49,465 nt of DNA from contig CAJAQL010000005.1 of assembly GCA_903944135.1 (NCBI GenBank), positions 1 to 49,465 of the forward strand, written 5' to 3'. Under the pieces are notes generated by a model. The model was not told the DNA's origin. It was given only the letters and a program-made list of their open reading frames with translations, and did no database searches. This document shows, in pieces, positions 1 to 11,936 of the stretch. The stretch comes from an uncultured Parcubacteria group bacterium (GTDB taxonomy: Bacteria; Patescibacteriota; Minisyncoccia; UBA6257; 2-01-FULL-56-20). The stretch's first letter is position 1. The number at the start of each line of letters is the position of its first letter. A program made the translations under genes and the position numbers.

Positions 1-377
1 GAACTTTATTTATTAAGGAGCCTTGCGATATAACTAAATAGGGAATGCCAAGGGGGCAATTTTGTTTAGGTGCCGTAATAATGAATGAAAACTTCTTGGG
101 CAAGCCATTTTCGGTTTTCGGAAAAGGGGTTAAAAAATGTCAGTGTGTGGATAATTTTTATACCATTTGCATAAAAAATGAGATATCATTTTCTTATGAG
201 TCCCAATAAAGAAAATTTCATTTAGATGCGAACGTGGGGTCGCAAAAGAGTGCCCTTCTGGTGGCGAGCAACTTAAGTTTTATGATATAGCCGTTATTAA
301 AAAGAAATATTATTGATCTAGAATGAAGAAGCGGAGATATTAAAAAAGTGTTGAGCAACTCTTAAGAATCTAAAAAC

Positions 378-1640
378 ATGGCACAACAAAAGATCGAGAA
401 TATTAAAGTCAGTGCATTACGATTATGGTCGGAAAATCCACGTGATCCAATAAGCCCAGAGAGCACTGACTTTGACATTATAAAACGAGCTATTAATGAT
501 AACTCTGAAGATTGGAATTTGGATAAAATGGTGAATGAGATGGGTTCTCATTACGATTTCAGTGAGATTCCTACTGTAGTATATCTCAGTGGTATACCCG
601 TTGTGTTTGATGGCAATCGCCGTGTCGCAGTGCTCAAATATCTCCAAGATAAAAAGCTCTATCTATCGCTTACGAATAAGCTTTTTCCAAAGAGCGATGG
701 TCCCAAGGAACTTTGCGAGCTGCGAGAAATACCCTGTAATGTGTGCGATAAAGATACGGCACTTACTAATATTGAAAGAAAACACGTTAATAATGGATCA
801 TGGGGAACTCTCCAGCGAGAGTACTTTTTACATCAACATCGTGGGCAGCCCAAGAGCTTATTCCTTGTTATTGAAGAGCAAACGAAACTTATTAGTACCC
901 ACCCAGATCTTAACCAGGGCTTTGTAAGAGATGAGGTTTTTACCGAGAAGAATCTCAAGGAGATTGGTTTCGGTATGCAAAACGGAAAGCTTGTTTCTGG
1001 CTATAATGACGAAGAGCAGGAAAAAATATTAGAACAGGCTGTCTTGCTTGTTGAGGATAAAGAAATAACAACTCGCAAACATAGGGGTTCATTGAAGCAG
1101 GCATTATTGGAGAAACATCCAGATAGTAAGGAAATACTTACTGTCTTTGATGGTAATAAAAAAGTTGAGATGGTGAATTGTGAATTTCCTCAGGTAGTCC
1201 GCCGAACGCAGCGCGTGACCGGTCAAGACCCTATTTTTTTTGGTAAATGCTTATCGTTAAAGCCGGGAGATGTTAATAACCTCTATCGGGATATTGTCGA
1301 TTTGTATTCCTTTTATCACAACAAAAAAAGCGGGCTTTCGAAGAGTTTTCCCGCTCTTATACGAATGTCACTTCGTTTGATTGTTGAATCGGCAGCTGTT
1401 AATGAAAAGATCGAAGATTATGTGCCTGCTCATTTCGAAGCGGCAAAGAAGGCGCTTTCTCAAGATCAAAAAACCACTCTCTCCACTCAAGAGGTGAATA
1501 CTCCAGAGAAGCTTGTTAAGCTTTTAAATATCGGTGCGCATAAATATACAGCTTCAGCAAATATGGATCAGACGATGACAATGTCTGTCATTATTGGTGT
1601 TATGCTGGAAAAGACACACCCAAAGAAGAAAAAAGGATGA
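378..1640 (+). CDS. ParB/Srx-fold (ParB-like nuclease domain) protein with about 290 aa of uncharacterised C-terminal region
   Basis: The N-terminus IKVSALRLWSENPRDPI ... VVFDGNRRVAVLKYL resembles the ParB/sulfiredoxin-fold boxes. The stop overlaps the next start (ATGA at 1637-1640). Confidence 0.6.
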   Translation: MAQQKIENIKVSALRLWSENPRDPISPESTDFDIIKRAINDNSEDWNLDKMVNEMGSHYDFSEIPTVVYLSGIPVVFDGNRRVAVLKYLQDKKLYLSLTNKLFPKSDGPKELCELREIPCNVCDKDTALTNIERKHVNNGSWGTLQREYFLHQHRGQPKSLFLVIEEQTKLISTHPDLNQGFVRDEVFTEKNLKEIGFGMQNGKLVSGYNDEEQEKILEQAVLLVEDKEITTRKHRGSLKQALLEKHPDSKEILTVFDGNKKVEMVNCEFPQVVRRTQRVTGQDPIFFGKCLSLKPGDVNNLYRDIVDLYSFYHNKKSGLSKSFPALIRMSLRLIVESAAVNEKIEDYVPAHFEAAKKALSQDQKTTLSTQEVNTPEKLVKLLNIGAHKYTASANMDQTMTMSVIIGVMLEKTHPKKKKG

Positions 1641-2497
1641 GATTTTATTCACCACTGAGATATCCTGGGGGGAAAAATAGACTCGCAAAGTTTATTGCCT
1701 TGCTTTGCGAGACGAATAGGATAACGGACCAAAAGGGACATTATGTGGAGCCATATGCAGGAGGGGCTTCAGTTGCTCTACATCTGTTGTTCGAGGGTTA
1801 TGTATCAGAAGTAACAATAAACGACAGCGATAGATCTATATATGCATTTTGGCATACCGTGCTTTATGACGCTGACAAATTGATAAACAAGATTCGCTAT
1901 GCCAGGGTCAATGAAAGAACATGGCGGAAATGTAGAGAAGTGCAACAAAAGAAAGTAGAAGCGTCACTTTTTGAACTTGGTTACTCGACCTTCTTTCTTA
2001 ATCGAACGAATGTATCAGGTATTATAGACGGAGGGATGATTGGTGGTTTTAAGCAGGCCGGGGAATATAAAATAGGTTGTCGTTTCAATAAAAAAGAGTT
2101 GATTAATAGAATACGTACAATAGCTAAATATAAAGATCGGATACATCTATTCAATCTCGACGCACTCGATTTGATAAGGCAAATCGAAAAGAATGATTCG
2201 CCAAATATTATCTTCTACTTCGATCCTCCATATTACTTAAAAGGTCCCTCGCTATATTTAAATAGTTATGACTACTCTGATCATGAAAAAGTGCGTGAAG
2301 CTATCGGTGGGATAGGAAATGCGAAGTGGCTTATTTCGTATGATGCGGCGAAGGAGATAAAGAGTCTCTATCGTGGATACAGAAAAATTGAATATTCACT
2401 TCTTCATACAGCTCGCACTGCTAGAATGGGGGAAGAGATACTCTTTCTTAGCCCTAATATGTTCATCCCCCAGATTACTGACCCAACTAAGGTATAA
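1637..2497 (+). CDS. N6-adenine DNA methyltransferase, Dam/D12 class
   Basis: Contains RYPGGKNRLAKFI, VEPYAGGASV (AdoMet-binding motif) and FYFDPPY (DPPY catalytic motif). Confidence 0.85.
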   Translation: MRFYSPLRYPGGKNRLAKFIALLCETNRITDQKGHYVEPYAGGASVALHLLFEGYVSEVTINDSDRSIYAFWHTVLYDADKLINKIRYARVNERTWRKCREVQQKKVEASLFELGYSTFFLNRTNVSGIIDGGMIGGFKQAGEYKIGCRFNKKELINRIRTIAKYKDRIHLFNLDALDLIRQIEKNDSPNIIFYFDPPYYLKGPSLYLNSYDYSDHEKVREAIGGIGNAKWLISYDAAKEIKSLYRGYRKIEYSLLHTARTARMGEEILFLSPNMFIPQITDPTKV

Positions 2498-2770
2498 ATT
2501 ATATTCTCTAGGGAGCGAAAGTATCGACAAATATCAAAATAACCAAAATCCGCATTTTATTGAAAAACCGCGGAAAATAATCCCGAAATAGATATATCTA
2601 TCATCTCTTGTTTTGCCTCCAAATTAAGACTATTCGAGGTTTTTTATAAGAAAAAAGAAAACATAAGCCAAGATGTACCCTACGAGGTATGTCTCCTTTC
2701 CGTCTTTAATTAAAATCTATATACGCATCTCAAATTTCATATCTCCCAAAAAGGAATCCCAACCCCTTAT

Positions 2771-3139
2771 TTAGCCGAATATCCCAAAGAGTTTTTTCGT
2801 TTTTCCGTCCTTGTCTAAATAGTTATAGATTGATTCCCCAAATTTCAACTGAAACGCCGTTCGTATCATTGCCAGTTTTTCTTGAACTAATTTTTCTGAG
2901 CCATCAATCATAGCTTGGAATAGCAGAGCGCTTATTCCGGGAGGGAGCAGGTTGCTTTCTAGCCTATCCTCCATCTGTTCTTTGGTTTTTTCCCAATCTT
3001 TGACATAGACACTATGGGTCTTGGCCATCTGGAAGGTTATGTCGCAATTTTTAATGAGATCTGCGGCTTGGGTCATTTCTGCCAGCTCCGCCTGCGCCAG
3101 AAAGGCTTTTAGATATTCTTGTTCTTTTTCTGAAAGCAT
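2771..3139 (-). CDS. hypothetical protein (122 aa)
   Basis: Clean ORF in the AT-rich island with no recognisable motif. Confidence 0.4.
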   Translation of the reverse strand: MLSEKEQEYLKAFLAQAELAEMTQAADLIKNCDITFQMAKTHSVYVKDWEKTKEQMEDRLESNLLPPGISALLFQAMIDGSEKLVQEKLAMIRTAFQLKFGESIYNYLDKDGKTKKLFGIFG

Positions 3140-3229
3140 GGATTTATCTTTGTAGTAGTTTTTATCGTTTTGTGTACGGAATAGATATTCTTCTTCCGTA
3201 TTATCTTTCTGAGAAAATTCCTATATTTT

Positions 3230-3748
3230 TCATTGAGGTGTCGTATTAGAGAGATGAGTTGCAGAGAATGGGCACTGTTTCCTTGTATACAGTTCAAACA
3301 AGAAAGCAGAGTTTTCGTTATAGCCAGAAGCACGAAGATTATCTATTATATTTTCTGGCAATTTGCACTCCGCATAGTTAATTCCCTTATCTACGTCGGT
3401 TGTTGTGCTTGTTATAGCTCCATTGGAATCTATATTAGCAACATACTCTCCGGCTGGAATATCACTAGGAGCACCATCTGATCGAACTGCTGTCTGCTGA
3501 TTTGTCGTTGTGCTATTTTCTATAGTAACCGATTGAGGGCTGTTTTCTACGGAATTGCTTTGATTATTTAGTAAAGGGGTAACGAGGTCACTTGATGTCG
3601 CTTGCTGTAATGCGGTGTCGGCGATCGACATCGCTTGGCTGGCAAAAGACAATGCCTGTTGTTTTAGCTGTGCATTTGCTTCAAGCCCTGGCGCGGTGAG
3701 CAGGCTCAATGCCATTTGAAGTACGAGAATAACAGATGCAAAATTCAT
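3230..3748 (-). CDS. hypothetical secreted protein (172 aa)
   Basis: Signal-peptide-like N-terminus MNFASVILVLQMALSLLTAPGLEA followed by a Ser/Thr/Asn-rich region. Confidence 0.45.
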   Translation of the reverse strand: MNFASVILVLQMALSLLTAPGLEANAQLKQQALSFASQAMSIADTALQQATSSDLVTPLLNNQSNSVENSPQSVTIENSTTTNQQTAVRSDGAPSDIPAGEYVANIDSNGAITSTTTDVDKGINYAECKLPENIIDNLRASGYNENSAFLFELYTRKQCPFSATHLSNTTPQ

Positions 3749-4038
3749 AGATTTGAAATGTTTATTTAATTTTGAAAGTGCTGGCTAGAATCGGCCTTTT
3801 TAAACACAAAGCTCCCAGCCAGATTCATATACCTTTCGGTGTACGGCCTACAACGGCGCTCTGACTAGGAGCTTTCTACGTTGTAGGACTTTGCGCCATG
3901 CCCCGATTGCTCAAGGTTTAGGCGACTCTATTAAGTTGTAATTTAATGTTGCCACGAAAAGGTTTTAAAAGCCAATACTTCTAGAGAGGAAATTTAAAGA
4001 GATAGGGTAAAATCATTAAAAAGTTAGGGAAATGGCTC

Positions 4039-4067
4039 TTGACTTTTATCAGAAAGTGTGGTACAAT
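4039..4067 (+). promoter_or_regulatory. sigma70-type promoter for the rightward island operon
   Basis: TTGACT (4039-4044), 17-nt spacer, TGgTACAAT (extended -10, TACAAT at 4062-4067). Confidence 0.55.
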
Positions 4068-4192
4068 GCAAATGCGGGTTAAAAGACGGGTTAACCTGAG
4101 TTTCTACAATATTTCAGCCTAATTATCGAGGGGGGCGATCTTTGGGATGTATTATTAACCAAAGGTCGCTTTTTAGTACTTTTAAAAAATTA

Positions 4193-4495
4193 ATGAAGTC
4201 CATTAAAATAAGATTTCAATATTTTGCCAAGGCAAAAAATGGGTGGAGCACTTATACTTGTTTTGCGTACGCAATCCAAGGTATGCATTTCAGTCGGTAT
4301 AGTGTCCGTGAGTGGTTTAATAAATTAGTCGATTTAGAGGATTATCTACAAAAAGATAAAAAAGGCGTCCTAGACTTTTTAATGATGCTAAATAATAGCC
4401 CCAGGAGCCAACTTTTAAGGGGCAAAACGATGCTAGACGCGATTATTTTATCGCAGACGGGTAAATCCTCATTTTCAAACAAAAAGGTCAAATAA
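4193..4495 (+). CDS. hypothetical protein
   Basis: The ORF opens at TTG 4142 and the first ATG is at 4193. It lies downstream of the 4039-4067 promoter. No recognisable motif. Confidence 0.35.
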   Translation: MKSIKIRFQYFAKAKNGWSTYTCFAYAIQGMHFSRYSVREWFNKLVDLEDYLQKDKKGVLDFLMMLNNSPRSQLLRGKTMLDAIILSQTGKSSFSNKKVK

Positions 4496-4562
4496 AAGAG
4501 AATTTTTATAAAAAATAAGTAGAGATGCGTTTTGCAATTTTTACATTGAGAGTCAGTTTAAT

Positions 4563-4808
4563 ATGAGGGCGATAGACAAAAAATTTTCAGTAGAAAAATT
4601 AAAGGAAATAGATTCAAAATTAGCAGATCTTTCAGAATCCGAAATTATAGAAATTCGTGACTCTCTTTACGATCTGGGCCAACTTATCTTTGATGATTGG
4701 CTGGAAAATGGGAGCGGTTCCAAATATCCGGTTAGGTCATTACCAATATTGTGGAATGATAATAAAATTAAGCTATGCCAATTACGAGCACTCAGACAAA
4801 GGGAATAA
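4563..4808 (+). CDS. hypothetical small acidic protein, overlaps the recombinase start
   Basis: 81-aa ORF whose 3' end overlaps the start of the recombinase gene by 34 nt. An accessory or directionality role is speculative only. Confidence 0.35.
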   Translation: MRAIDKKFSVEKLKEIDSKLADLSESEIIEIRDSLYDLGQLIFDDWLENGSGSKYPVRSLPILWNDNKIKLCQLRALRQRE

Positions 4809-6169
4809 TTTATTGCCGCGTTTCTTCCAAGGAACAGGTTGAGGGAACGAGCTTGGATATGCAAGAACGGGTGTGTCGTGAATGGGCCGGTAAAAGGGGC
4901 ATTGAGGTTCTAGGGGTATTTGTGGATAAGGGTGAATCTGCAAAGACAGCGAACCGGCCCGAATTTTTGAAGGCGATTGGTTTCTGCTCTAAAAAGAAAA
5001 ACAGCGTCAATTTTTTCATTGTCTACAAGGTGGATCGCTTTGCAAGAAATCAGAATGACCACGTAACAGTTCGTGAGGTATTGAAACGGGTCGGCACGGA
5101 ATTACGTTCAGTTACTGAACCGATCAATGAGGAACCGATGGGTAAGGCAATGGAAGGTATGATGTCTGTCTTTGCAGAACTCGACAATAATCTGCGGGCC
5201 GAGCGATGCAAGAATGGCATGATGGAACGAGTGAAAGAGGGTGTTTGGGTATGGCCCGCTCCGATCGGTTACTATCGGCCGCGCAAAGGTGGGAATATAG
5301 CTCCCGATCCGACAACGAAGGACTACATAACCCTTATTTTCCAAGAATGGGCCAAGGGAACGCATACCTATCGTTCCTTGGCTCAATTCATGGCTGAGCG
5401 TGGTTTCCGGACGCATCATGGCAGGAAGCCGTTTTCTCAATTTATCGAGAGCATTATCAGAAACGAGGTGTATTGCGGTTATATTAATTCGTGGGGTATG
5501 CGCGTGAAAGGTACCGGCACATTCGAGCCAATCGTCAGTGAAGAATTATTCTTACGGTGCCAGCACAAGAACAAGACCCTTATGGGGCCGCGAAAAACAG
5601 GGAATCCCGATTTTCCATTGCGACGAACAATTTGCTTAGGTTGCATGGGTTCTCTTACGGCAAGCTATTCACACGGGAATGGTGGCGCATATCCGTATTA
5701 CCATCATCATGCGCATCACAATTGCTCACTGGCGAGGTTCATTCCGAAAGAAACTTTTGAGCAGTTGTTTTTGAAATATCTCCACGGGATCTCGCCTGAT
5801 AAGAAATATGAAAAATGGTTCAAGGCGATCATGCTCGACATCTGGCAGTCGAATTTCAAGAAGTTTGACGAGATGAACGGAACCGTCCAGAAAGAGATCG
5901 GTCAGCTTGAACAGGAGCGGCAGAAAATCTTTGAGGCCCAGCGTCGCAGCGTATATAGCGACGAAGAGTTTTTAGAGCAGAAGAATCTCATCAATCAGAG
6001 GATCAACGAGAAAACTCAGCTTTTGGTCGATAACCGTATCGAAGAATTCAATATGGATGAAGCGTTAACGTATTGCTTCAACTTCGTGCGTGATAGTGCG
6101 AAAACGTGGCTTCGGTTGAAGTACGAGCCAAGGATTCGGTTCCAAAAAAATATCTGTCCCGAAAAATAG
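4775..6169 (+). CDS. large serine recombinase (resolvase/invertase catalytic domain, recombinase domain, Cys/His-rich zinc ribbon, coiled coil)
   Basis: IIYCRVSSKEQ catalytic Ser motif, VDRFARN, Cys/His cluster CLGCMG...HHHAHHNC, and C-terminal coiled-coil-like QKEIGQLEQERQKIFEAQ. Confidence 0.9.
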   Translation: MPITSTQTKGIIYCRVSSKEQVEGTSLDMQERVCREWAGKRGIEVLGVFVDKGESAKTANRPEFLKAIGFCSKKKNSVNFFIVYKVDRFARNQNDHVTVREVLKRVGTELRSVTEPINEEPMGKAMEGMMSVFAELDNNLRAERCKNGMMERVKEGVWVWPAPIGYYRPRKGGNIAPDPTTKDYITLIFQEWAKGTHTYRSLAQFMAERGFRTHHGRKPFSQFIESIIRNEVYCGYINSWGMRVKGTGTFEPIVSEELFLRCQHKNKTLMGPRKTGNPDFPLRRTICLGCMGSLTASYSHGNGGAYPYYHHHAHHNCSLARFIPKETFEQLFLKYLHGISPDKKYEKWFKAIMLDIWQSNFKKFDEMNGTVQKEIGQLEQERQKIFEAQRRSVYSDEEFLEQKNLINQRINEKTQLLVDNRIEEFNMDEALTYCFNFVRDSAKTWLRLKYEPRIRFQKNICPEK

Positions 6170-6254
6170 ACGTTCGACGGAGAAAAATTTGGAACCACGA
6201 AATTGTCTAAGATTTATGCCCTTAATCAGGAATATGACGGTGAAAAATCCAATC

Positions 6255-6329
6255 TGGTGGACCGGAGGGGAGTCGGACCCCTGACCTCCTCATTGCAAAT
6301 GAGGCGTTCTACCACTGAACTACCGGCCC
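6255..6329 (-). tRNA. tRNA-Ala (anticodon UGC), CCA encoded
   Basis: Reverse complement GGGCCGGTAGTTCAGTGGTAGAACGCCTCATTTGCAATGAGGAGGTCAGGGGTCCGACTCCCCTCCGGTCCACCA folds as a cloverleaf. It has the G3:U70 Ala identity pair and anticodon loop TTTGCAA. Confidence 0.9.
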
Positions 6330-6341
6330 GAAAACAAATCT

Positions 6342-6370
6342 ATTGTAGCTTGACGCGTTAAAAATGCAAA
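6342..6370 (-). promoter_or_regulatory. candidate promoter of tRNA-Ala
   Basis: On the minus strand: TTTGCA, 17 nt, TACAAT, ending about 12 nt before tRNA position 1. Confidence 0.4.
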
Positions 6371-6449
6371 GTATAAAAGAGTTTTATGGGATCCGTTGTT
6401 GCAAAATTCGTCTTACTGCCGGGGTGAATTTTGAGGCGGACGCAAGAAC

Positions 6450-6478
6450 TTGCTTAAAATGGAAAATGGCATTATAAT
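6450..6478 (+). promoter_or_regulatory. promoter of rpmE (leaderless geometry)
   Basis: TTGCTT (6450-6455), 17-nt spacer, TATAAT (6473-6478), then 7 nt to ATG 6486. Confidence 0.55.
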
Positions 6479-6485
6479 AAGCCTT

Positions 6486-6737
6486 ATGAAAAAAGATATC
6501 CATCCGACCTATTTCCCTGAAGCAAAAGTGATCTGTGCTTGCGGCAATTCGTTTACCGTAGGGGCGACCAAGCCCGAGATCCGCGTTGAGATCTGCGCAA
6601 AGTGCCATCCGTTCTATACCGGCGAAGAGAAATTGCTCGACGTCGCAGGACGGGTCGAGAAGTTCAAGGCGCGCCGCGAAAAGGCATCCGCCACTCCGAA
6701 GAAGGTGAAGAAAGTGCGCGCGAAAAAAACAGAATAA
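6486..6737 (+). CDS. rpmE: 50S ribosomal protein L31 (Zn-binding type)
   Basis: [23 protein letters not shown]...[13 protein letters not shown]. The ORF opens at 6450 but the conserved N-terminus starts at 6486. Confidence 0.9.
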
Positions 6738-6751
6738 TCCTGAATCTGAAG

Positions 6752-6790
6752 AACGTCCTCAAGCATCCGATGCTCCGGGGGCGTTTTTTT
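6752..6790 (+). terminator. intrinsic terminator after rpmE
   Basis: AACGTCC...GGGCGTT stem enclosing the AGCATC/GATGCT palindrome, followed by a T7 run. Confidence 0.5.
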
Positions 6791-6804
6791 ATACCGGTTA
6801 TTTC

Positions 6805-6813
6805 TGCTATAAT
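6805..6813 (+). promoter_or_regulatory. extended -10 box 6 nt upstream of the pilB GTG
   Basis: TGcTATAAT, then gagaac, then GTG at 6820. Confidence 0.5.
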
Positions 6814-6819
6814 GAGAAC

Positions 6820-8541
6820 GTGAAACTTCCTATTTCTTCCGATCAGTTGAAGGCAGTGCTTATCTCCGAGGGGCTTGTGACGGCGGATGTTTTTGATCGT
6901 CTTTTGGAAGAGGCCCAGAGAAAGGGGCAGGACATCGTCGACGTCCTTGTCTCGAACCATATTGCCGAAAAGGGGTATCTCGACGATGCGGTGGCTAAAG
7001 CGCTTGGTGTTCCAAGGATCACGCTTGCGGCGAGTTCCATTGATAAGGACGTTTTGAAACTGCTCTCTGAGGGAGTTGCCCGCGATCGCCAGGCGGTGAT
7101 CTTTCGCCGCGAAGAGGATGGCACGTTCGATGTGGCCATGGCGAACCCTTCGGATCTTGAAACCATCGAATTTCTCACGACGCGCTTGAAGGCCCGCGTG
7201 AAACCGTTCCTTGCGACCCAGGATGATCTGAACCAGGGTTTTTCGGTGTATGGCTACGAGGTCGAGCAGGATTTCAAGAAGATCATCGAGGATAATATAC
7301 GGAACTCTCTCGCGAACCAGTTGGGAAAAAATATGACGGACGTGGCGTCCCAGCTTCCCGTGATGGGCGTGGTGGAAAATATTCTTTCCTATGCCATGGC
7401 GTCGCGCGCATCAGACATCCATATCGAAATACTTGAAGATGCCACGTTCATCCGTTATCGCATTGACGGCATTCTTTATGAAGTGATGTCGATCACAAAG
7501 GCGATCCATCCGGCGATCGTCGCGCGCATCAAGCTTCTCGCGGGACTGAAGATCGACGAGCACTACGCGCCGCAGGATGGGCGGTTCCGCTATCAGGTCG
7601 GCAATCAGACGATCGATATCCGTGTTTCCGTCATTCCTACGTTTTACGGCGAAAAAGTGGAAATGCGTCTTCTCGAATCATCGCAGAAGCCGTTGTCCCT
7701 CGAGGAGATCGGCATGTCGCCCGAGGCCGTGAAGGTCGTCTCGGAAAATCTCAAGAGATCCTACGGCATGATCTTATCCTGCGGTCCGACCGGTTCCGGA
7801 AAATCGACGACGCTATATGCTTTGATGAACATCCTGAACCGTCCGCAGGTCAATGTCACCACGATCGAAGACCCGATCGAATACAATATGCGCTATGTGA
7901 ACCAGACGCAGATCAATCCTCAGGCCGGCATCACGTTCGCTTCGGGTCTCCGTTCGCTCCTGCGTCAGGACCCGAACGTCATCATGGTCGGCGAGATCCG
8001 CGATGCGGAAACGGCTGATATCTCCGTGCAGGCGGCCCTCACCGGCCACTTGATCCTTTCGTCGCTCCACACGAACGATGCGCCGACCGCCGTGCCGCGC
8101 TTCTTCGATCTGAACGTGCCGCCGTATCTTGTCGCTTCCGTTTTGAGCTTGGTGGTCGCCCAACGTTTGGTGCGAAAGATCTGTCCCTCGTGCATCTATT
8201 CTTATGATGCCGATGAGCATATCGCTTCGGTCATCAAATCCCAGCGCCGCGAACTCGGCATTTCCGACGAAGAAAGCATCACTATCCCGAAAACATTCTA
8301 TCGCGGGAAAGGATGTTCCGTGTGCGGCATGACCGGCTATATCGGCCGCAGCGGTATCTTTGAGGTGCTTGAAGTGAACGATGAAGTGAAAAAAACGATT
8401 GACAGCGATCATTTCGACATCGATGAATTGCGTGCTGAAGCGCGCCGAAACGGCATGGTGACCATGTTCGAGGACGGACTTCGAAAAGTTGAGCTTGCCG
8501 AGACGACGATCGACGAGGTTCTCCGCGTGATCCGTGAATAA
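6820..8541 (+). CDS. pilB: type IV pilus assembly ATPase PilB (GspE family)
   Basis: T2SSE N-terminal-like region, Walker A GPTGSGKSTT, MVGEIRD, LTGHLILSSLHTND, and a CxxC...CxxC tetracysteine motif. Confidence 0.9.
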   Translation: MKLPISSDQLKAVLISEGLVTADVFDRLLEEAQRKGQDIVDVLVSNHIAEKGYLDDAVAKALGVPRITLAASSIDKDVLKLLSEGVARDRQAVIFRREEDGTFDVAMANPSDLETIEFLTTRLKARVKPFLATQDDLNQGFSVYGYEVEQDFKKIIEDNIRNSLANQLGKNMTDVASQLPVMGVVENILSYAMASRASDIHIEILEDATFIRYRIDGILYEVMSITKAIHPAIVARIKLLAGLKIDEHYAPQDGRFRYQVGNQTIDIRVSVIPTFYGEKVEMRLLESSQKPLSLEEIGMSPEAVKVVSENLKRSYGMILSCGPTGSGKSTTLYALMNILNRPQVNVTTIEDPIEYNMRYVNQTQINPQAGITFASGLRSLLRQDPNVIMVGEIRDAETADISVQAALTGHLILSSLHTNDAPTAVPRFFDLNVPPYLVASVLSLVVAQRLVRKICPSCIYSYDADEHIASVIKSQRRELGISDEESITIPKTFYRGKGCSVCGMTGYIGRSGIFEVLEVNDEVKKTIDSDHFDIDELRAEARRNGMVTMFEDGLRKVELAETTIDEVLRVIRE

Positions 8542-8543
8542 TA

Positions 8544-8599
8544 GAATCTATCTCAAAAAGTCCCCACGATATCCAGATGCCTGTTTTTGAGATAGGTTC
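8544..8599. repeat. inverted repeat of the CCTATCTCAAAAA family
   Basis: GAATCTATCTCAAAAA ... TTTTTGAGATAGGTTC flank 24 nt, directly after the pilB stop. Confidence 0.7.
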
Positions 8600-8664
8600 T
8601 AGTGTTATAATACTGAAGTATTCCGGAGTTACCTCGTTTGCAACATTAGAACGCTCATATATTT

Positions 8665-9879
8665 ATGCTTTACCATTATCGCGCGGTTGATGAAGGAGGG
8701 GCGGTCATAGAAGGCGAAGTTGACGCGGAGAACCTGCAGGCTGCTTTGCAGCTTATCTCCCAGAAGAACCTCCGTCCCATTTCCATGGATCCCGTCAAAA
8801 GGGAGAAGCAGGGATCGCTTGGGGGATTTTTCAGTTCCCGGATCACGGTTGGGGATAAGGTTTTCCTTACGAAATATCTCGCCTTGATGCTTCGCGTGGG
8901 AACCGATCTCTTGTCGGCGGTCAATATTCTCATTGCGGATGCCGATAAGCCTGCGATGAAGAATTTTCTCATTGAGGTGCGCGAAAACCTCACGCGCGGC
9001 GAACCGTTTTATAAAACATTCGGACAATATCCCAAGGTGTTCTCGGCGACTTTTGTGAGCCTCGTGAAAGCGGCCGAGGCATCCGGAAACCTGCAGAAAA
9101 CGTTCGAGGATCTTAACGTGTCGTTGACTTCGGATGCGGACCTGCAGAACAAGATCCGTTCAGCGCTCATTTATCCGGTCATATTGCTTGGCATGGCGGG
9201 TGCCATCACGATATTCCTGGTCACCTTTGCCCTGCCGAAGGTGGCGGGAGTCTTTACGGAAAGCAATATCACGCCGCCGCTTTTTTCGCGGATCGTCTTC
9301 GCGGTCGGACTTTTTTTGGGGAATAACATCATCATCATCCTTACGCTCCTCTTTGCCGCGATCTTCGGTTCGGTCTTCTTTGTGCGAAAAACGGAAACCG
9401 GCAAACGGGCCGTTGATGCGTTCCTTACCCATATGCCGGGCATCAAAAATATCTATCGCGATCTGTCGATCCAGCGGATGGCGTCAACGATGAGCTCGCT
9501 TATGAAAGCCGGATTGCCTATCGTGCAGACGATCACGATTGCGGCCGATACGGTACCGATCCGCGAATTCCGCTATGCGCTTCTCAGGATCGCGAACGAA
9601 GGACTTTCAAAGGGGCTTACGATCGGAGAGGCGTTCCGGCGCGAGACCATCTTGCCGCAGTCGGTGACCAGCTTGATCGCAATCTCGGAACGGGCGGGCC
9701 ATATCGAAGAAGTTCTCGGAACGCTCGGCGATTTCTATACCTCGAATATCGATGCAAGCATCGCGACGGCGGTGGCGCTCATTGAACCGGTCATGCTGCT
9801 CATCATGGGCGCGCTCGTCGGACTCATTGCGCTTTCCATCATCGTGCCGATCTATCAAATGTCGTCATCGGCGTTCTAA
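8665..9879 (+). CDS. pilC: type IV pilus platform protein PilC (GspF family)
   Basis: Two GspF-type repeats with three membrane segments. N-terminus YRAVDEGGAVIEGEVDAENLQAALQLISQKNLRPI is typical of PilC. Confidence 0.9.
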   Translation: MLYHYRAVDEGGAVIEGEVDAENLQAALQLISQKNLRPISMDPVKREKQGSLGGFFSSRITVGDKVFLTKYLALMLRVGTDLLSAVNILIADADKPAMKNFLIEVRENLTRGEPFYKTFGQYPKVFSATFVSLVKAAEASGNLQKTFEDLNVSLTSDADLQNKIRSALIYPVILLGMAGAITIFLVTFALPKVAGVFTESNITPPLFSRIVFAVGLFLGNNIIIILTLLFAAIFGSVFFVRKTETGKRAVDAFLTHMPGIKNIYRDLSIQRMASTMSSLMKAGLPIVQTITIAADTVPIREFRYALLRIANEGLSKGLTIGEAFRRETILPQSVTSLIAISERAGHIEEVLGTLGDFYTSNIDASIATAVALIEPVMLLIMGALVGLIALSIIVPIYQMSSSAF

Positions 9880-9881
9880 AC

Positions 9882-10391
9882 ATGGAAAAAGAGTTTTCAC
9901 GATCGTCGCCACATCGGAACAGCGGTTTTACGCTCATTGAGTTGATCGTCGTGATCGCGATCATTGGGATTATGAGCGCAATCGCATTTGTTTCGCTTAC
10001 CGGGAGGCGGGGGACGAATGATCTTACGAACACGGCGTCGCAGATCGTCGTGATCCTGCGGGAAGCAGAAAGCAGATCAATGACGCAGGCGCAGGGTGTT
10101 CCCTGGGGCGTCTATTTCGGGAATCCCACGAACACGGCACCGTTCTATGCATTGTTTTCGTCGACTTACAGCACGGCTACGGTCGCAGGATATTATCGAT
10201 TGCCGGTCACGGTCGGTTACGTCGCTTCAACCGTTCCGCAGGGAGGATCCCTTACGATCACCTTTTCGCAGATCACGGGGTTGGCTTCCTCGTCGGCCGC
10301 GGTCGGACTTTATATTCTGAACCCGCAGAAAAGCTTGACGGTCACCTCGAGCATGATATCCGTCGCGACATCGGGCGTGGTTTCTTATTAA
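9882..10391 (+). CDS. type IV pilin/pseudopilin
   Basis: Class III signal HRNSG|FTLIELIVVIAIIGIMSAIAF. The start is 2 nt after the pilC stop. Confidence 0.8.
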   Translation: MEKEFSRSSPHRNSGFTLIELIVVIAIIGIMSAIAFVSLTGRRGTNDLTNTASQIVVILREAESRSMTQAQGVPWGVYFGNPTNTAPFYALFSSTYSTATVAGYYRLPVTVGYVASTVPQGGSLTITFSQITGLASSSAAVGLYILNPQKSLTVTSSMISVATSGVVSY

Positions 10392-10430
10392 GCAATGACG
10401 AAAATTAATTTTAAAAATCTATTTCTTAAT

Positions 10431-10680
10431 CCGTCATTTCGAACGAAGCCTGCTTCGAGGTTTTCCGAGCGGCAAGGAATTCCTTTTTCTGTCGTCCCCG
10501 CCCCTCAACAGACTCGGGATAAACTCCGGCGGGGGATCCATGCTTCCGATCTTTTGCGTAAAGCACGGGTCCTTCAGCCAAGCCGGAGGATGACAGGAAT
10601 AAACATCGATTCCCGCTGGAACCTGTCTTCCGCACCCGCCCGTGCGGGTACAAGCTCCGGCCTACGCGGGGATGACGAGC
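10431..10680. repeat. cluster of GC-rich palindromic repeat units (degenerate type II plus extra hairpin units)
   Basis: Includes CTGTCGTCCCCGCC..CGGCGGGGGATCCATGCTTCC..AAAGCACGGG..GGAGGATGACAGG and CGCGGGGATGACGAG. The cluster lies inside the long ORF that opens at 10395. Confidence 0.75.
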
Positions 10681-11936
10681 GGATTGGAGGTTTCACTCTC
10701 GTCGAACTTCTGGTGGTCATCATGATCGTCGCTATCCTCTCGATCGTGGTCGTTCTCACGATGAACATTCCCGAACTCTTGAGGCAATCGCGCGACAGTT
10801 CGCGGCTTTCGGATATAAAAACACTGAACGGCGCCGTGACGTTCTATCTTAACGAACTGCCGGGCGGGAATTTAGGTTCGTCGACCACTATCTATGTTTC
10901 CTTGCCGGACAAAACGATCTCGGGAAACACCACGTCCACGTGCACGTCGCTTAATTTACCTACGCCGCCCACGGGTTATAGCTATCAATGTTCTTCGCCG
11001 CAGGCGTATCGCCACGTCGACGGCACGGGGTGGATGCCAGTGAATCTTGCCCAGCTTTCGTCCGGCTCGCCAATCTCGGTTTTGCCGGTTGATCCCGCAA
11101 ACCAGACATCTACTGATCTTTACTATACCTATACCGCAAATGGCGGGAGTTATGTTTTTACCAGTTTTTTTGAATCGCAGAAGGATGCCAAGATGATGGA
11201 AAACAGTGGCGGATCTGATGCTTCCGTTTATGCGGTCGGAACTAATCTCACCGCACCGGATGTTGGAAGGGGTTTTGTCGGTTATTGGCCGATGGACGAG
11301 GGGACGGGAACTATGGCTTACGATCAGTCGGGGGCAGGAAATAATGGGGCATTGATCAACGGACCTACATGGATAGCGGGTAAAATAAATAGCGCCTTAA
11401 GCTTCAATGATAGTAATTCATATGTTTCTGTTTCGGATACCTCTACCTTGGAGTACGTCGGAGGCAATATGACCTTGGCGGCGTGGATCAACGTGAACAG
11501 CACGGAAACGACCGGTGGGTGGATTTTCTCCAAACCGTGGAATGGGGGTGGTCAATATAACTATACAGTTACGCTTAACTCGAATAATACGCTTAGTTTT
11601 GGAATCGTTGGTTCTGGTTCTTACTCTATTTCCACCACTGCGGTCATACCATCTAATTCTTGGCATTATATTGCCGCGACGGTAAATTCCAGTGGCCAAA
11701 TGTCTATTTATATCGACGGTAATTTAAGTGCCTCCGGGACAGATGGTATTGTGGGTTGGACTCCATCATCTGGCAACGGTAGCATTCCTTTGAGCATAGG
11801 GACTCTCTATCCGTACGGAACTGGTTCATGGACCCATTCGAATTTTACATTCGGTGGTTTAATAGATGATGCGAGGATCTATAACAGAGCATTGTCTGTC
11901 ACTGAAATTAAGGCGATCTATAACGCGGAAAAGTGA
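10590..11936 (+). CDS. large pilin-like protein with C-terminal LamG/concanavalin-like domain
   Basis: GG|FTLVELLVVIMIVAIL class III signal at about 10685. C-terminal GYWPMDEG...GLIDDARIYNRALSVTEIKAIY is LamG-like. The ORF is open from 10395; the nearest in-frame ATG before the signal is 10590, so the start is uncertain. Confidence 0.7.
   Translation: MTGINIDSRWNLSSAPARAGTSSGLRGDDERIGGFTLVELLVVIMIVAILSIVVVLTMNIPELLRQSRDSSRLSDIKTLNGAVTFYLNELPGGNLGSSTTIYVSLPDKTISGNTTSTCTSLNLPTPPTGYSYQCSSPQAYRHVDGTGWMPVNLAQLSSGSPISVLPVDPANQTSTDLYYTYTANGGSYVFTSFFESQKDAKMMENSGGSDASVYAVGTNLTAPDVGRGFVGYWPMDEGTGTMAYDQSGAGNNGALINGPTWIAGKINSALSFNDSNSYVSVSDTSTLEYVGGNMTLAAWINVNSTETTGGWIFSKPWNGGGQYNYTVTLNSNNTLSFGIVGSGSYSISTTAVIPSNSWHYIAATVNSSGQMSIYIDGNLSASGTDGIVGWTPSSGNGSIPLSIGTLYPYGTGSWTHSNFTFGGLIDDARIYNRALSVTEIKAIYNAEK

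Follow-up and report, generated by a model that had tools for sequence, protein, structure and literature searches.

An overlapping gene pair encoding a ParB-fold protein and an adenine methyltransferase in a Parcubacteria group bacterium is a distant relative of the anti-phage system PD-λ-5

A DNA stretch of 49,465 nucleotides (nt) from an uncultured Parcubacteria group bacterium (contig CAJAQL010000005.1 of assembly GCA_903944135.1), called the window throughout, contains two genes on the forward strand, A and B, that overlap in an ATGA tetranucleotide. A preliminary description, based on the sequence alone, had reported these two coupled open reading frames (ORFs), had interpreted their products as a protein with an N-terminal ParB/Srx fold and a D12-class N6-methyladenine (m6A) methyltransferase encoded on a mobile island, and had proposed that they form an uncharacterised modification or defence module. 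The analysis revealed that the pair is a distant, uncatalogued relative of the anti-phage system PD-λ-5; the kind of system is already known. The features of the locus, including the overlap as read in the sequence, are compiled in Table 1.

Table 1. Coordinates of the gene pair, the domains of protein A and the surrounding features of the island
Feature	Position (nt)	Strand	Remarks
Low-GC integrated island, right-hand part	1..6250	.	carries the cassette; truncated by the left edge of the contig
Promoter-like site TTAAAA-16-TAGAAT	297..324	+	54 nt 5′ of the A start codon; weak candidate
Gene A	378..1640	+	420 amino acids (aa), ATG start; remote homolog of PD-λ-5A
ParB/Srx-type nucleotide-binding N-domain of A	378..680	+	about aa 1-100; invariant columns, Foldseek
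Central domain of A	705..1130	+	about aa 110-250; CxxC and RKH/W/R block
Variable linker of A	1134..1265	+	about aa 253-296; gapped, unconserved columns; length and sequence differ among homologs
C-terminal six-helix domain of A	1266..1619	+	aa 297-414; counterpart of the 'HEPN'-labelled PD-λ-5A C-domain
Overlap of A stop and B start, ATGA	1637..1640	+	reads ...AAA GGA TGA; B ATG at 1637-1639
Gene B	1637..2497	+	286 aa, ATG start; D12-class N6-adenine DNA methyltransferase, PD-λ-5B subfamily
ORFs after the cassette	2771-3139, 3230-3748, 4142-4495, 4563-4808	-, -, +, +
Large serine recombinase, island integrase	4775..6169	+	Resolvase 3.8e-34, Recombinase 1.5e-10, phrog_95 integrase 1.7e-75
tRNA-Ala(TGC)	6255..6329	-	3′ end faces the recombinase

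A word-indexed search retrieved 568 homologs of gene A with a best expectation value (E) of 7e-208, and therefore A and B are real genes and not chance ORFs. Nearly all A homologs have a length of 405-440 aa, all are annotated as 'hypothetical', and none carries a Pfam domain. The promoter-like site upstream of A has 9 of 12 matches. A scan of the region yielded 16 such sites, compared to 13.5 +/- 4.1 in shuffled sequences, which is no excess, and the site is a weak candidate only, a guess from its position.

The assignment of B to the D12-class m6A methyltransferases held. B matched the Pfam family PF02086 (MethyltransfD12) with 73.7 bits against a cut-off of 22 (E 2.6e-20). Motif I (EPYAGGAS, aa 38-45, nt 1748-1771) and motif IV (DPPY, aa 196-199, nt 2222-2233) are intact, and both were aligned to a solved relative, the methylase 7m6b (E 1.7e-14). 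The score of B on the NCBIfam model for Dam (TIGR00571) was 68.6 bits and thus below the cut-off of 114.85, indicating that B is a D12 methylase, but no orthodox (GATC) Dam. The PADLOC model PDLC04018 (PD-Lambda-5_B) matched aa 1-282 of the 286 aa with E 3.7e-113 and 375.6 bits; for comparison, the PD-λ-5B protein of an E. coli P2 prophage reached 403.9 bits on the same model. The two proteins are 46% identical over their full length (E 1e-90). These sequence comparisons place B clearly within the PD-λ-5B subfamily.

PD-λ-5 is a two-gene anti-phage system that was selected from a fosmid library of E. coli ECOR7, where it resides in a prophage (Vassallo 2022; PMC9519451). The supplement of that study labels it 'ParB/HEPN, methyltransferase'. 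It is among the broadest-acting systems of this E. coli screen, its cloning required an mrr-deleted host, no escape plaques were found, the effect was strongest on T-even phages, and it was read as 'RM+Abi', in which an RNase suicide arm reinforces restriction (PMC9519451). PADLOC profile models matched not only B but also A, for which 15 PD-Lambda-5_A models were found with a best E of 5.6e-11. The module proposed in the preliminary description is supported as a defence or modification module, but it is not uncharacterised in kind, as PADLOC places both genes in PD-λ-5.

The relationship of A to PD-λ-5A was characterized by comparison of two alignments, one of 67 A-family members and one of 38 canonical PD-λ-5A proteins. 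Alignment of the two profiles with hhalign gave a probability of 99.4% (E 5.6e-21) over A residues 5-342, a span that extends from the ParB domain through the central domain and the linker into the C-domain, of which it includes the first conserved helix. When only the C-domains were compared, 106 columns were aligned with E 3.5e-4 and a probability of 37%. In this alignment R333, E337, and H388 of A are in register with R365, E369, and H438 of canonical PD-λ-5A. On the strength of these profile alignments, A is regarded as a remote homolog of PD-λ-5A that probably shares its entire domain architecture.

The reference PD-λ-5 loci had to be reached indirectly. Searches with A in phage and plasmid collections (tblastn) and with the cassette in E. 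coli genomes (blastn) yielded no match. A tblastn search with B retrieved 37 phages, and the methylase gene of Citrobacter phage phiNP was used as a DNA probe. The neighbour of the B homolog in a Pseudomonas prophage-like phage is a gene for a full-length canonical PD-Lambda-5_A (E 4e-90; locus L087, with compared loci cited by L numbers). The phiNP probe led to E. coli loci, including a P2-like prophage of strain KL53, in which genes for a protein of 501 aa and a methylase of 294 aa (L097:1592-3097 and 3167-4051) are located between the replication endonuclease and portal genes. The two proteins matched PD-Lambda-5_A with E 5.4e-168 and PD-Lambda-5_B with E 8.8e-122, and the pair spans 2,460 bp, compared to 2,461 bp calculated from the published PD-λ-5 coordinates. 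A canonical pair was also present in a lambdoid prophage of E. coli 2014C-4423, 3′ of the Q antiterminator gene (L095:3262-5566), where RefSeq names the products 'DNA adenine methylase' and 'ParB/Srx family N-terminal domain-containing protein'. In this prophage and in the Pseudomonas phage the two genes are convergent, and the family thus has no constant arrangement of the pair.

Protein A consists of a ParB/Srx N-domain, a central helical domain, a linker, and a C-terminal six-helix domain. The structure of the full-length protein was predicted with AlphaFold using the family alignment as input, and the average confidence was high (predicted local distance difference test, pLDDT, 91.8). The linker has the lowest confidence (pLDDT 68-81 in blocks 271-290). 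Foldseek searches with the model matched the N-terminal half to ParB and Noc proteins with probabilities of 0.97-0.99, the highest value being that for ParB with bound cytidine diphosphate (6sdk), and to sulfiredoxins with 0.90-0.96 (0.96 for 6ky4). Further fold matches were found to viral ParB-like proteins, with probabilities of up to 1.0, and to GmrSD N-domain proteins. The alignments to ParB and Noc comprise 207-272 columns and thus extend beyond the N-domain alone. In agreement with the preliminary description, the ParB/Srx fold of the N-domain was confirmed at the level of the predicted structure. Scans of A against Pfam and NCBIfam had no match, the Pfam ParBc family (PF02195) matched neither A nor any of the 67 family members at E <= 1, and Pfam over the 67 aligned members gave chance-level matches only. 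The family profile did not match any ParB among the PDB sequences, its sole match being a spurious one to the CHMP3 coiled coil (E 0.06).

In the N-domain of the 67 sequences, the ENPR box (E19-N20-P21-R22, nt 432-443) and the DGNRR box (D78-G-N80-R-R82, nt 609-623) are invariant or nearly so; A thus has both the GxRR-type arginine motif and the NPxR-type N-terminal box of the ParB/Srx superfamily. The central domain contains a CxxC motif (C120 and C123 in IPCNVC, nt 735-746) that is invariant in 67 of 67 clade members. Canonical PD-λ-5A proteins have IEFxxF at this position, and the motif is thus specific for the clade; the cysteine pair may form a metal or redox site. The block R134-K135-H136 / W142 / R147 (nt 774-820) is also invariant and aligns with WIxLRHxGE..G..W of canonical PD-λ-5A. 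In the C-domain, R333 and H388 (nt 1539-1541) are invariant, and position 337 is always E or D (R333 and E/D337 at nt 1374-1388). The complete set of invariant residues comprises W17, E19, N20, P21, R22, D78, N80, R82, C120, C123, R134, K135, H136, W142, R147, R233, M330, R333, and H388.

The C-domain was also modelled alone (residues 287-420), which yielded six helices with pLDDT 93.5. Its best-scoring fold matches were generic four-helix bundles with E values of about 0.4. The best match to a HEPN protein (2hsb; E 2.1, template modelling score 0.38) ranked below these bundles, and the HEPN protein AbiV (9bj5) matched the full-length model of A with E 6.3. At the positions -4, -5, and -6 from H388, the family has H/Q/N, an invariant L, and L/I/V, respectively, and thus no arginine. 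For PD-λ-5A itself, the published HHpred table lists ParBc with 96.4% for residues 6-89, but the HEPN-type matches are weak, with 35.6% for DUF4145 and 8% for HEPN_RiboL-PSP (PMC9519451). The 'HEPN' label of the PD-λ-5 C-domain therefore rests on weak evidence, and for the C-domain of A the assignment is unproven. We do not endorse it, because the lone domain had no significant fold match. At most, the C-domain resembles HEPN families that have the histidine but lack the arginine, which were included in a survey from 2013 (PMC3710099). The fold and Pfam searches also revealed no plain partition or transcription-factor domain in the C-terminal part, the outcome that would have spoken against the module of the preliminary description.

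The A clade is large and widespread. An exhaustive profile search yielded 864, 262, and 160 representatives of clusters at 50% identity with thresholds of E <= 1e-3, E <= 1e-10, and E <= 1e-30, respectively. Among species-representative genomes, 154 stretches encode a relative of A. The hosts belong to the Patescibacteria, Bacteroidota, Proteobacteria, Verrucomicrobiota, Spirochaetota, Chloroflexota, and DPANN archaea; only three viral contigs with an A relative were found. To quantify the linkage of the two genes, 80 A loci were fetched, of which 79 had sequence 3′ of A. A B homolog was present at all 79. A lack of co-occurrence in other genomes, which the preliminary description had named as a refutation of the module, thus does not apply. 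The two genes were adjacent on the same strand in 68 pairs, and in 63 of these the intergenic distance was between -23 and +4 nt. Twelve pairs have the distance of -4 that corresponds to an ATGA overlap, and 14 pairs have a distance of +1. In one locus B is convergent to A (L079). Several copies were in decay: an insertion sequence (IS) element lies inside B next to a truncated A (L032:6253-9051), an IS element separates B and A (L054:2669-7245), or B is split into two ORFs (L007:7283-8148).

The linkage data also bear on the question whether A is a ParB-type partition, silencing, or transcription factor that happens to lie beside an unrelated orphan methylase. The best structural matches of A are indeed ParB and Noc, which bind cytidine triphosphate. 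However, the methylase is linked in 79 of 79 loci with overlapping reading frames, none of the island ORFs is a ParA-like gene, ParBc remained unmatched in all 67 members, the element is integrated in a chromosome and not a plasmid, and A is homologous to a defence protein. This explanation is therefore largely refuted and extremely improbable; the identification of A as a partition protein was rejected on account of the missing ParA gene and the strict methylase linkage.

Some loci revealed that the partners of the methylase vary. In one operon of Rugamonas brunnea LX20W (L026:5995-9567), a window-type A (5995-7236) is followed by a canonical PD-Lambda-5_A (7298-8623; E 7e-165) and a single B (8686-9567). 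As two A types share one B, the window-type and the canonical A are probably not redundant. At two other loci (L062:7281-8903 and L070:1498-3066), a gene for an ATPase of 522-540 aa that resembles OLD/ATPase-Toprim proteins (PDLC02914, E 1e-20 to 1e-22) is located between a window-type A and B on one strand. In Citrobacter phage phiNP (L084:2134-3921 and 4001-4849), a P-loop ATPase gene instead of a gene for a ParB protein precedes the PD-λ-5B-type methylase gene. Streptococcus phage Javan645 (L086:2193-3932 and 3989-4846) has the pair in the same order, and it is also found in E. coli L65, adjoining icd and an integrase gene (L096:1388-3097 and 3167-4027). These three ATPases have 569-595 aa and are similar to OLD, AriA, PtuA, and GajA. 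This suggests that PD-λ-5B-type methylases have interchangeable effector partners at prophage ends. In Vibrio phage 10N.286.54.E5_PE002 (L085:4866-6245), a B-type methylase gene is convergent with a gene for a 459-aa protein that had no PADLOC match and no similarity to A; it is followed by genes for a P-loop NTPase and HerA-like helicases and by an integrase gene. The 459-aa protein may be another uncatalogued methylase partner.

In the P2-like Vibrio phage ValB1MD-2 (L094:1952-4391), PD-λ-5A is encoded in two parts by overlapping genes, which precede the methylase gene and adjoin an integrase gene. The first encodes a ParB part of 252 aa, and the second, located between the ParB part and the methylase, a C-domain protein of 265 aa. 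The ParB part matched the alignment of the A family with 95.6%, and the C-domain protein matched the canonical C-domain with 96.6% (E 5.8e-10). The 252-aa protein is also the best viral fold match of A (E 4.3e-5).

The varying partners are relevant for an alternative explanation, according to which the pair is a plain two-gene restriction-modification (R-M) system similar to Type II. The ParB/Srx domain would cut unmethylated DNA, and the C-domain would dimerise, recognise the target, or regulate. The strictly linked and coupled methylase fits this explanation, and the pairing of the methylase lineage with OLD/Toprim-type ATPase-nucleases follows the logic of interchangeable restriction partners. 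Proteins of the ParB/Srx superfamily can nick or cut DNA, examples being Osa and the ParB of RK2, and one relative has an upstream gene that resembles an R-M controller. However, this gene was confined to a single element. PD-(D/E)xK, HNH, GIY-YIG, or PLD nuclease domains were not detected in A by Pfam, NCBIfam, or fold searches, and the three invariant polar or charged residues of the C-domain are typical of an active site. The failure to obtain escape plaques and the particularly strong protection against T-even phages poorly fit simple restriction, which argues against this explanation for the E. coli relative but does not settle the matter. Taken together, a plain R-M system is considered unlikely, and the ParB-fold nuclease that the preliminary description offered as a restriction enzyme is possible but unproven.

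The island setting given in the preliminary description was reproduced. The GC content of positions 1-5000 is 37-41%, whereas most of the remaining sequence has about 50-55%, and the tRNA-Ala gene next to the recombinase gene is the likely junction of island and chromosome. None of the four ORFs between cassette and recombinase belongs to a Pfam family, and at most they had a weak match to a PHROG family of unknown function; the last of them overlaps the start of the recombinase gene. Host genes follow beyond the tRNA gene, namely an ORF that resembles rpmE as judged by its sequence, and genes for type IV pili. The pilus cluster (6820-11936) contains PilB-like and PilC-like genes and a gene for a prepilin-type protein. 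It also encodes a protein of 513 aa with an N-terminal methylation motif and a Laminin_G_3/lectin-like domain, which showed a weak match to the receptor-binding N-domain of clostridial neurotoxins.

When the window was compared with its closest relatives, sequence similarity started at about position 366-372 and ended at 2497-2498, and it thus covers exactly the two genes. The possibility that the whole island is common to the closest relatives was rejected, as the shared part is the two-gene cassette only. The surroundings of the relatives fit with mobility of the cassette: the first lies in a serine-recombinase island with an ArdC-N-like gene, the second in an island with genes for a DpnII R-M system, DUF3800 and ABC-3C-type proteins, and the coupling protein of a type IV secretion system, and the third is a bare insertion beside a DDE transposase gene among housekeeping genes. 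One relative (L090:3453-5569) is 75% identical to the window in A and 74% in B. Another (L001:5388-7474) is 77% identical in A, but only about 46-59% in B. The identities of A and B are uncoupled, and therefore methylases, and with them specificities, have probably been exchanged between cassettes. In the element of the closest relative (L090 and L091), a gene for a 68-aa protein of the HTH_3 helix-turn-helix family, which resembles an R-M controller protein, lies 6 nt 5′ of A (L091:9789-9995), and an ArdC-N-like gene lies 3′ of the cassette (L091:12268-12564). Both are absent from the window and from the other loci, and an upstream controller-like gene was thus rejected as a feature of the family. 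In a search of sequencing runs, matches were confined to DNA contigs of one pond metagenome study, which is the source of the window.

The location of the cassette on integrative elements and beside transposases, together with the ArdC-N-like gene directly 3′ of it in the closest relative, would also be in accordance with a selfish role. By methylation of the element, B could evade the restriction systems of a recipient or act in epigenetic regulation, and A and B together could form an addiction pair that kills cells after loss of the island, as R-M-like pairs can act as addiction modules. However, in one relative the bare pair is inserted into a chromosome amid housekeeping genes, in another it lies in an island rich in defence genes, and a related system was selected directly for phage protection; addiction and defence are, moreover, compatible with each other. 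A selfish role in place of defence is thus regarded as highly unlikely. Likewise, the anti-restriction or self-protection alternative of the preliminary description is less likely because the two genes are strictly linked and A is homologous to a defence protein that has been validated.

We hypothesized that the pair is a self-contained cassette of the PD-λ-5 type that is horizontally mobile and protects against phages, and we assign a probability of roughly 70% to this explanation. In this model, B, as an N6-adenine methyltransferase, would mark the DNA of the host and the island as self. The need for an mrr-deleted host was taken to indicate that the E. coli relative of B methylates cellular DNA. 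The ParB/Srx N-domain of A and its ParB-like central domain would bind nucleotide and DNA, and A would most likely be a switch dependent on nucleoside triphosphate (NTP) that reports DNA without the methyl mark of B. The C-domain with its R-x3-[E/D]...H signature would be the output module, nuclease-type or otherwise toxic, and the ATGA coupling would keep the protective B in step with the dangerous A. The confident ParB fold of A and its invariant residues of the phosphate-binding type speak for the model. In the characterised defence proteins GmrSD/BrxU, SspE, DndB, and DpdB, the ParB-like N-domain serves as NTPase or regulator and cleavage is left to another domain, and therefore a role of the ParB module as sensor or switch, rather than nuclease, is favoured for A. 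The invariant R, E/D, and H residues favour the C-domain as the output, and Vibrio phage ValB1MD-2, in which the C-domain has a gene of its own, favours a design of sensor plus output.

Several results weigh against this model. A is only remotely related to the validated PD-λ-5A, as far as sequence comparison can tell: the PADLOC matches stop at aa 246 and leave the C-terminal 40% of A outside every model, pairwise BLASTP with canonical PD-λ-5A detected similarity at the GNRR box only, and the comparison with the single E. coli PD-λ-5A sequence gave 79% over the N-terminal 140 aa only. The Foldseek search with the lone C-domain had no significant match in the PDB, and the HEPN motif Rx4-6H is absent from the C-domains of the 67 aligned sequences; a catalytic role of this domain is therefore a guess. 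The phage phenotype in E. coli that is difficult to reconcile with simple restriction counts here as well. A search of the literature retrieved no study of the PD-λ-5 mechanism. Phage defence by the divergent clade is deduced by analogy with the E. coli relative, and the mechanism is a prediction.

A more specific version of the model would be that the A clade represents a distinct subtype, in which a ParB-type, NTP-gated clamp senses the absence of m6A and fires an R-E-H effector unrelated to HEPN. This version is tentative and rather unlikely as it stands. If it were true, the Rugamonas operon and the pairings with OLD/Toprim-type proteins would point to an immunity with one methylase and several plug-in effectors, which reaches bacteria of the candidate phyla radiation and DPANN archaea.

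Irrespective of the mechanism, the results extend the A component by a large clade that is unusually well conserved and has no annotation. Members of this clade are characterized by their specific CxxC motif and a divergent C-domain and can coexist with canonical A on one methylase. The clade offers a structure model of high confidence and a set of invariant residues (ENPR, GNRR, RKH, CxxC, and R333/E337/H388), and the PD-λ-5B-type methylase was found to be common to several alternative partner proteins. For genome annotation, 'hypothetical proteins' of 420 aa that are encoded beside a D12 methylase can be named PD-λ-5A-like.

The gene pair shares features with several known systems. Fusions of ParB with methyltransferases in phages and plasmids and orphan Dam-like prophage methylases also link a ParB fold with an adenine methylase in function and lie on mobile elements. 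Here, A and B are separate, coupled genes, A has two further domains, and B stays below the NCBIfam threshold for Dam. ParB-HEPN fusions (Saro_3948) and operons in which a HEPN gene accompanies genes for a ParB nuclease and a DNA methylase (MAE_28990) have been described computationally in 2013 (PMC3710099). Together with PrrC of EcoprrI, they represent HEPN proteins linked to R-M systems, for which the logic of 'RM+Abi' has been proposed and which likewise unite a ParB fold, a methylase, and a putative HEPN domain in one operon or polypeptide, but the C-domain of A has neither the Rx4-6H motif nor a significant HEPN fold match. GmrSD/BrxU and SspE also combine an N-terminal ParB/Srx nucleotide-binding domain and a C-terminal output domain in one defence polypeptide, and their action depends on the modification status of DNA. 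They contain DUF262, a DGQQR/DGQHR motif, and an HNH/DUF1524 nuclease, whereas A has DGNRR and no HNH domain. Furthermore, modified DNA (Type IV) or phosphorothioate is the signal that they recognise, whereas the partner of A is an m6A methylase, and therefore unmodified DNA is the presumed target of A.

The closest similarity is to PD-λ-5 itself. Differences are the length of A (420 aa compared to 464-501 aa of canonical proteins), the clade-specific invariant CxxC motif, the overlap of the two genes in place of the 70-nt gap of the KL53 pair, and their location on the same strand, in contrast to the convergent genes of the other E. coli and Pseudomonas prophages. Nevertheless, both systems have A followed by B on one strand of a mobile element, a ParB/Srx N-domain with ENxR and GNRR, a central RH...G...W block, a helical C-domain with R-x3-E and a conserved histidine, and a methylase from the same D12 subfamily.

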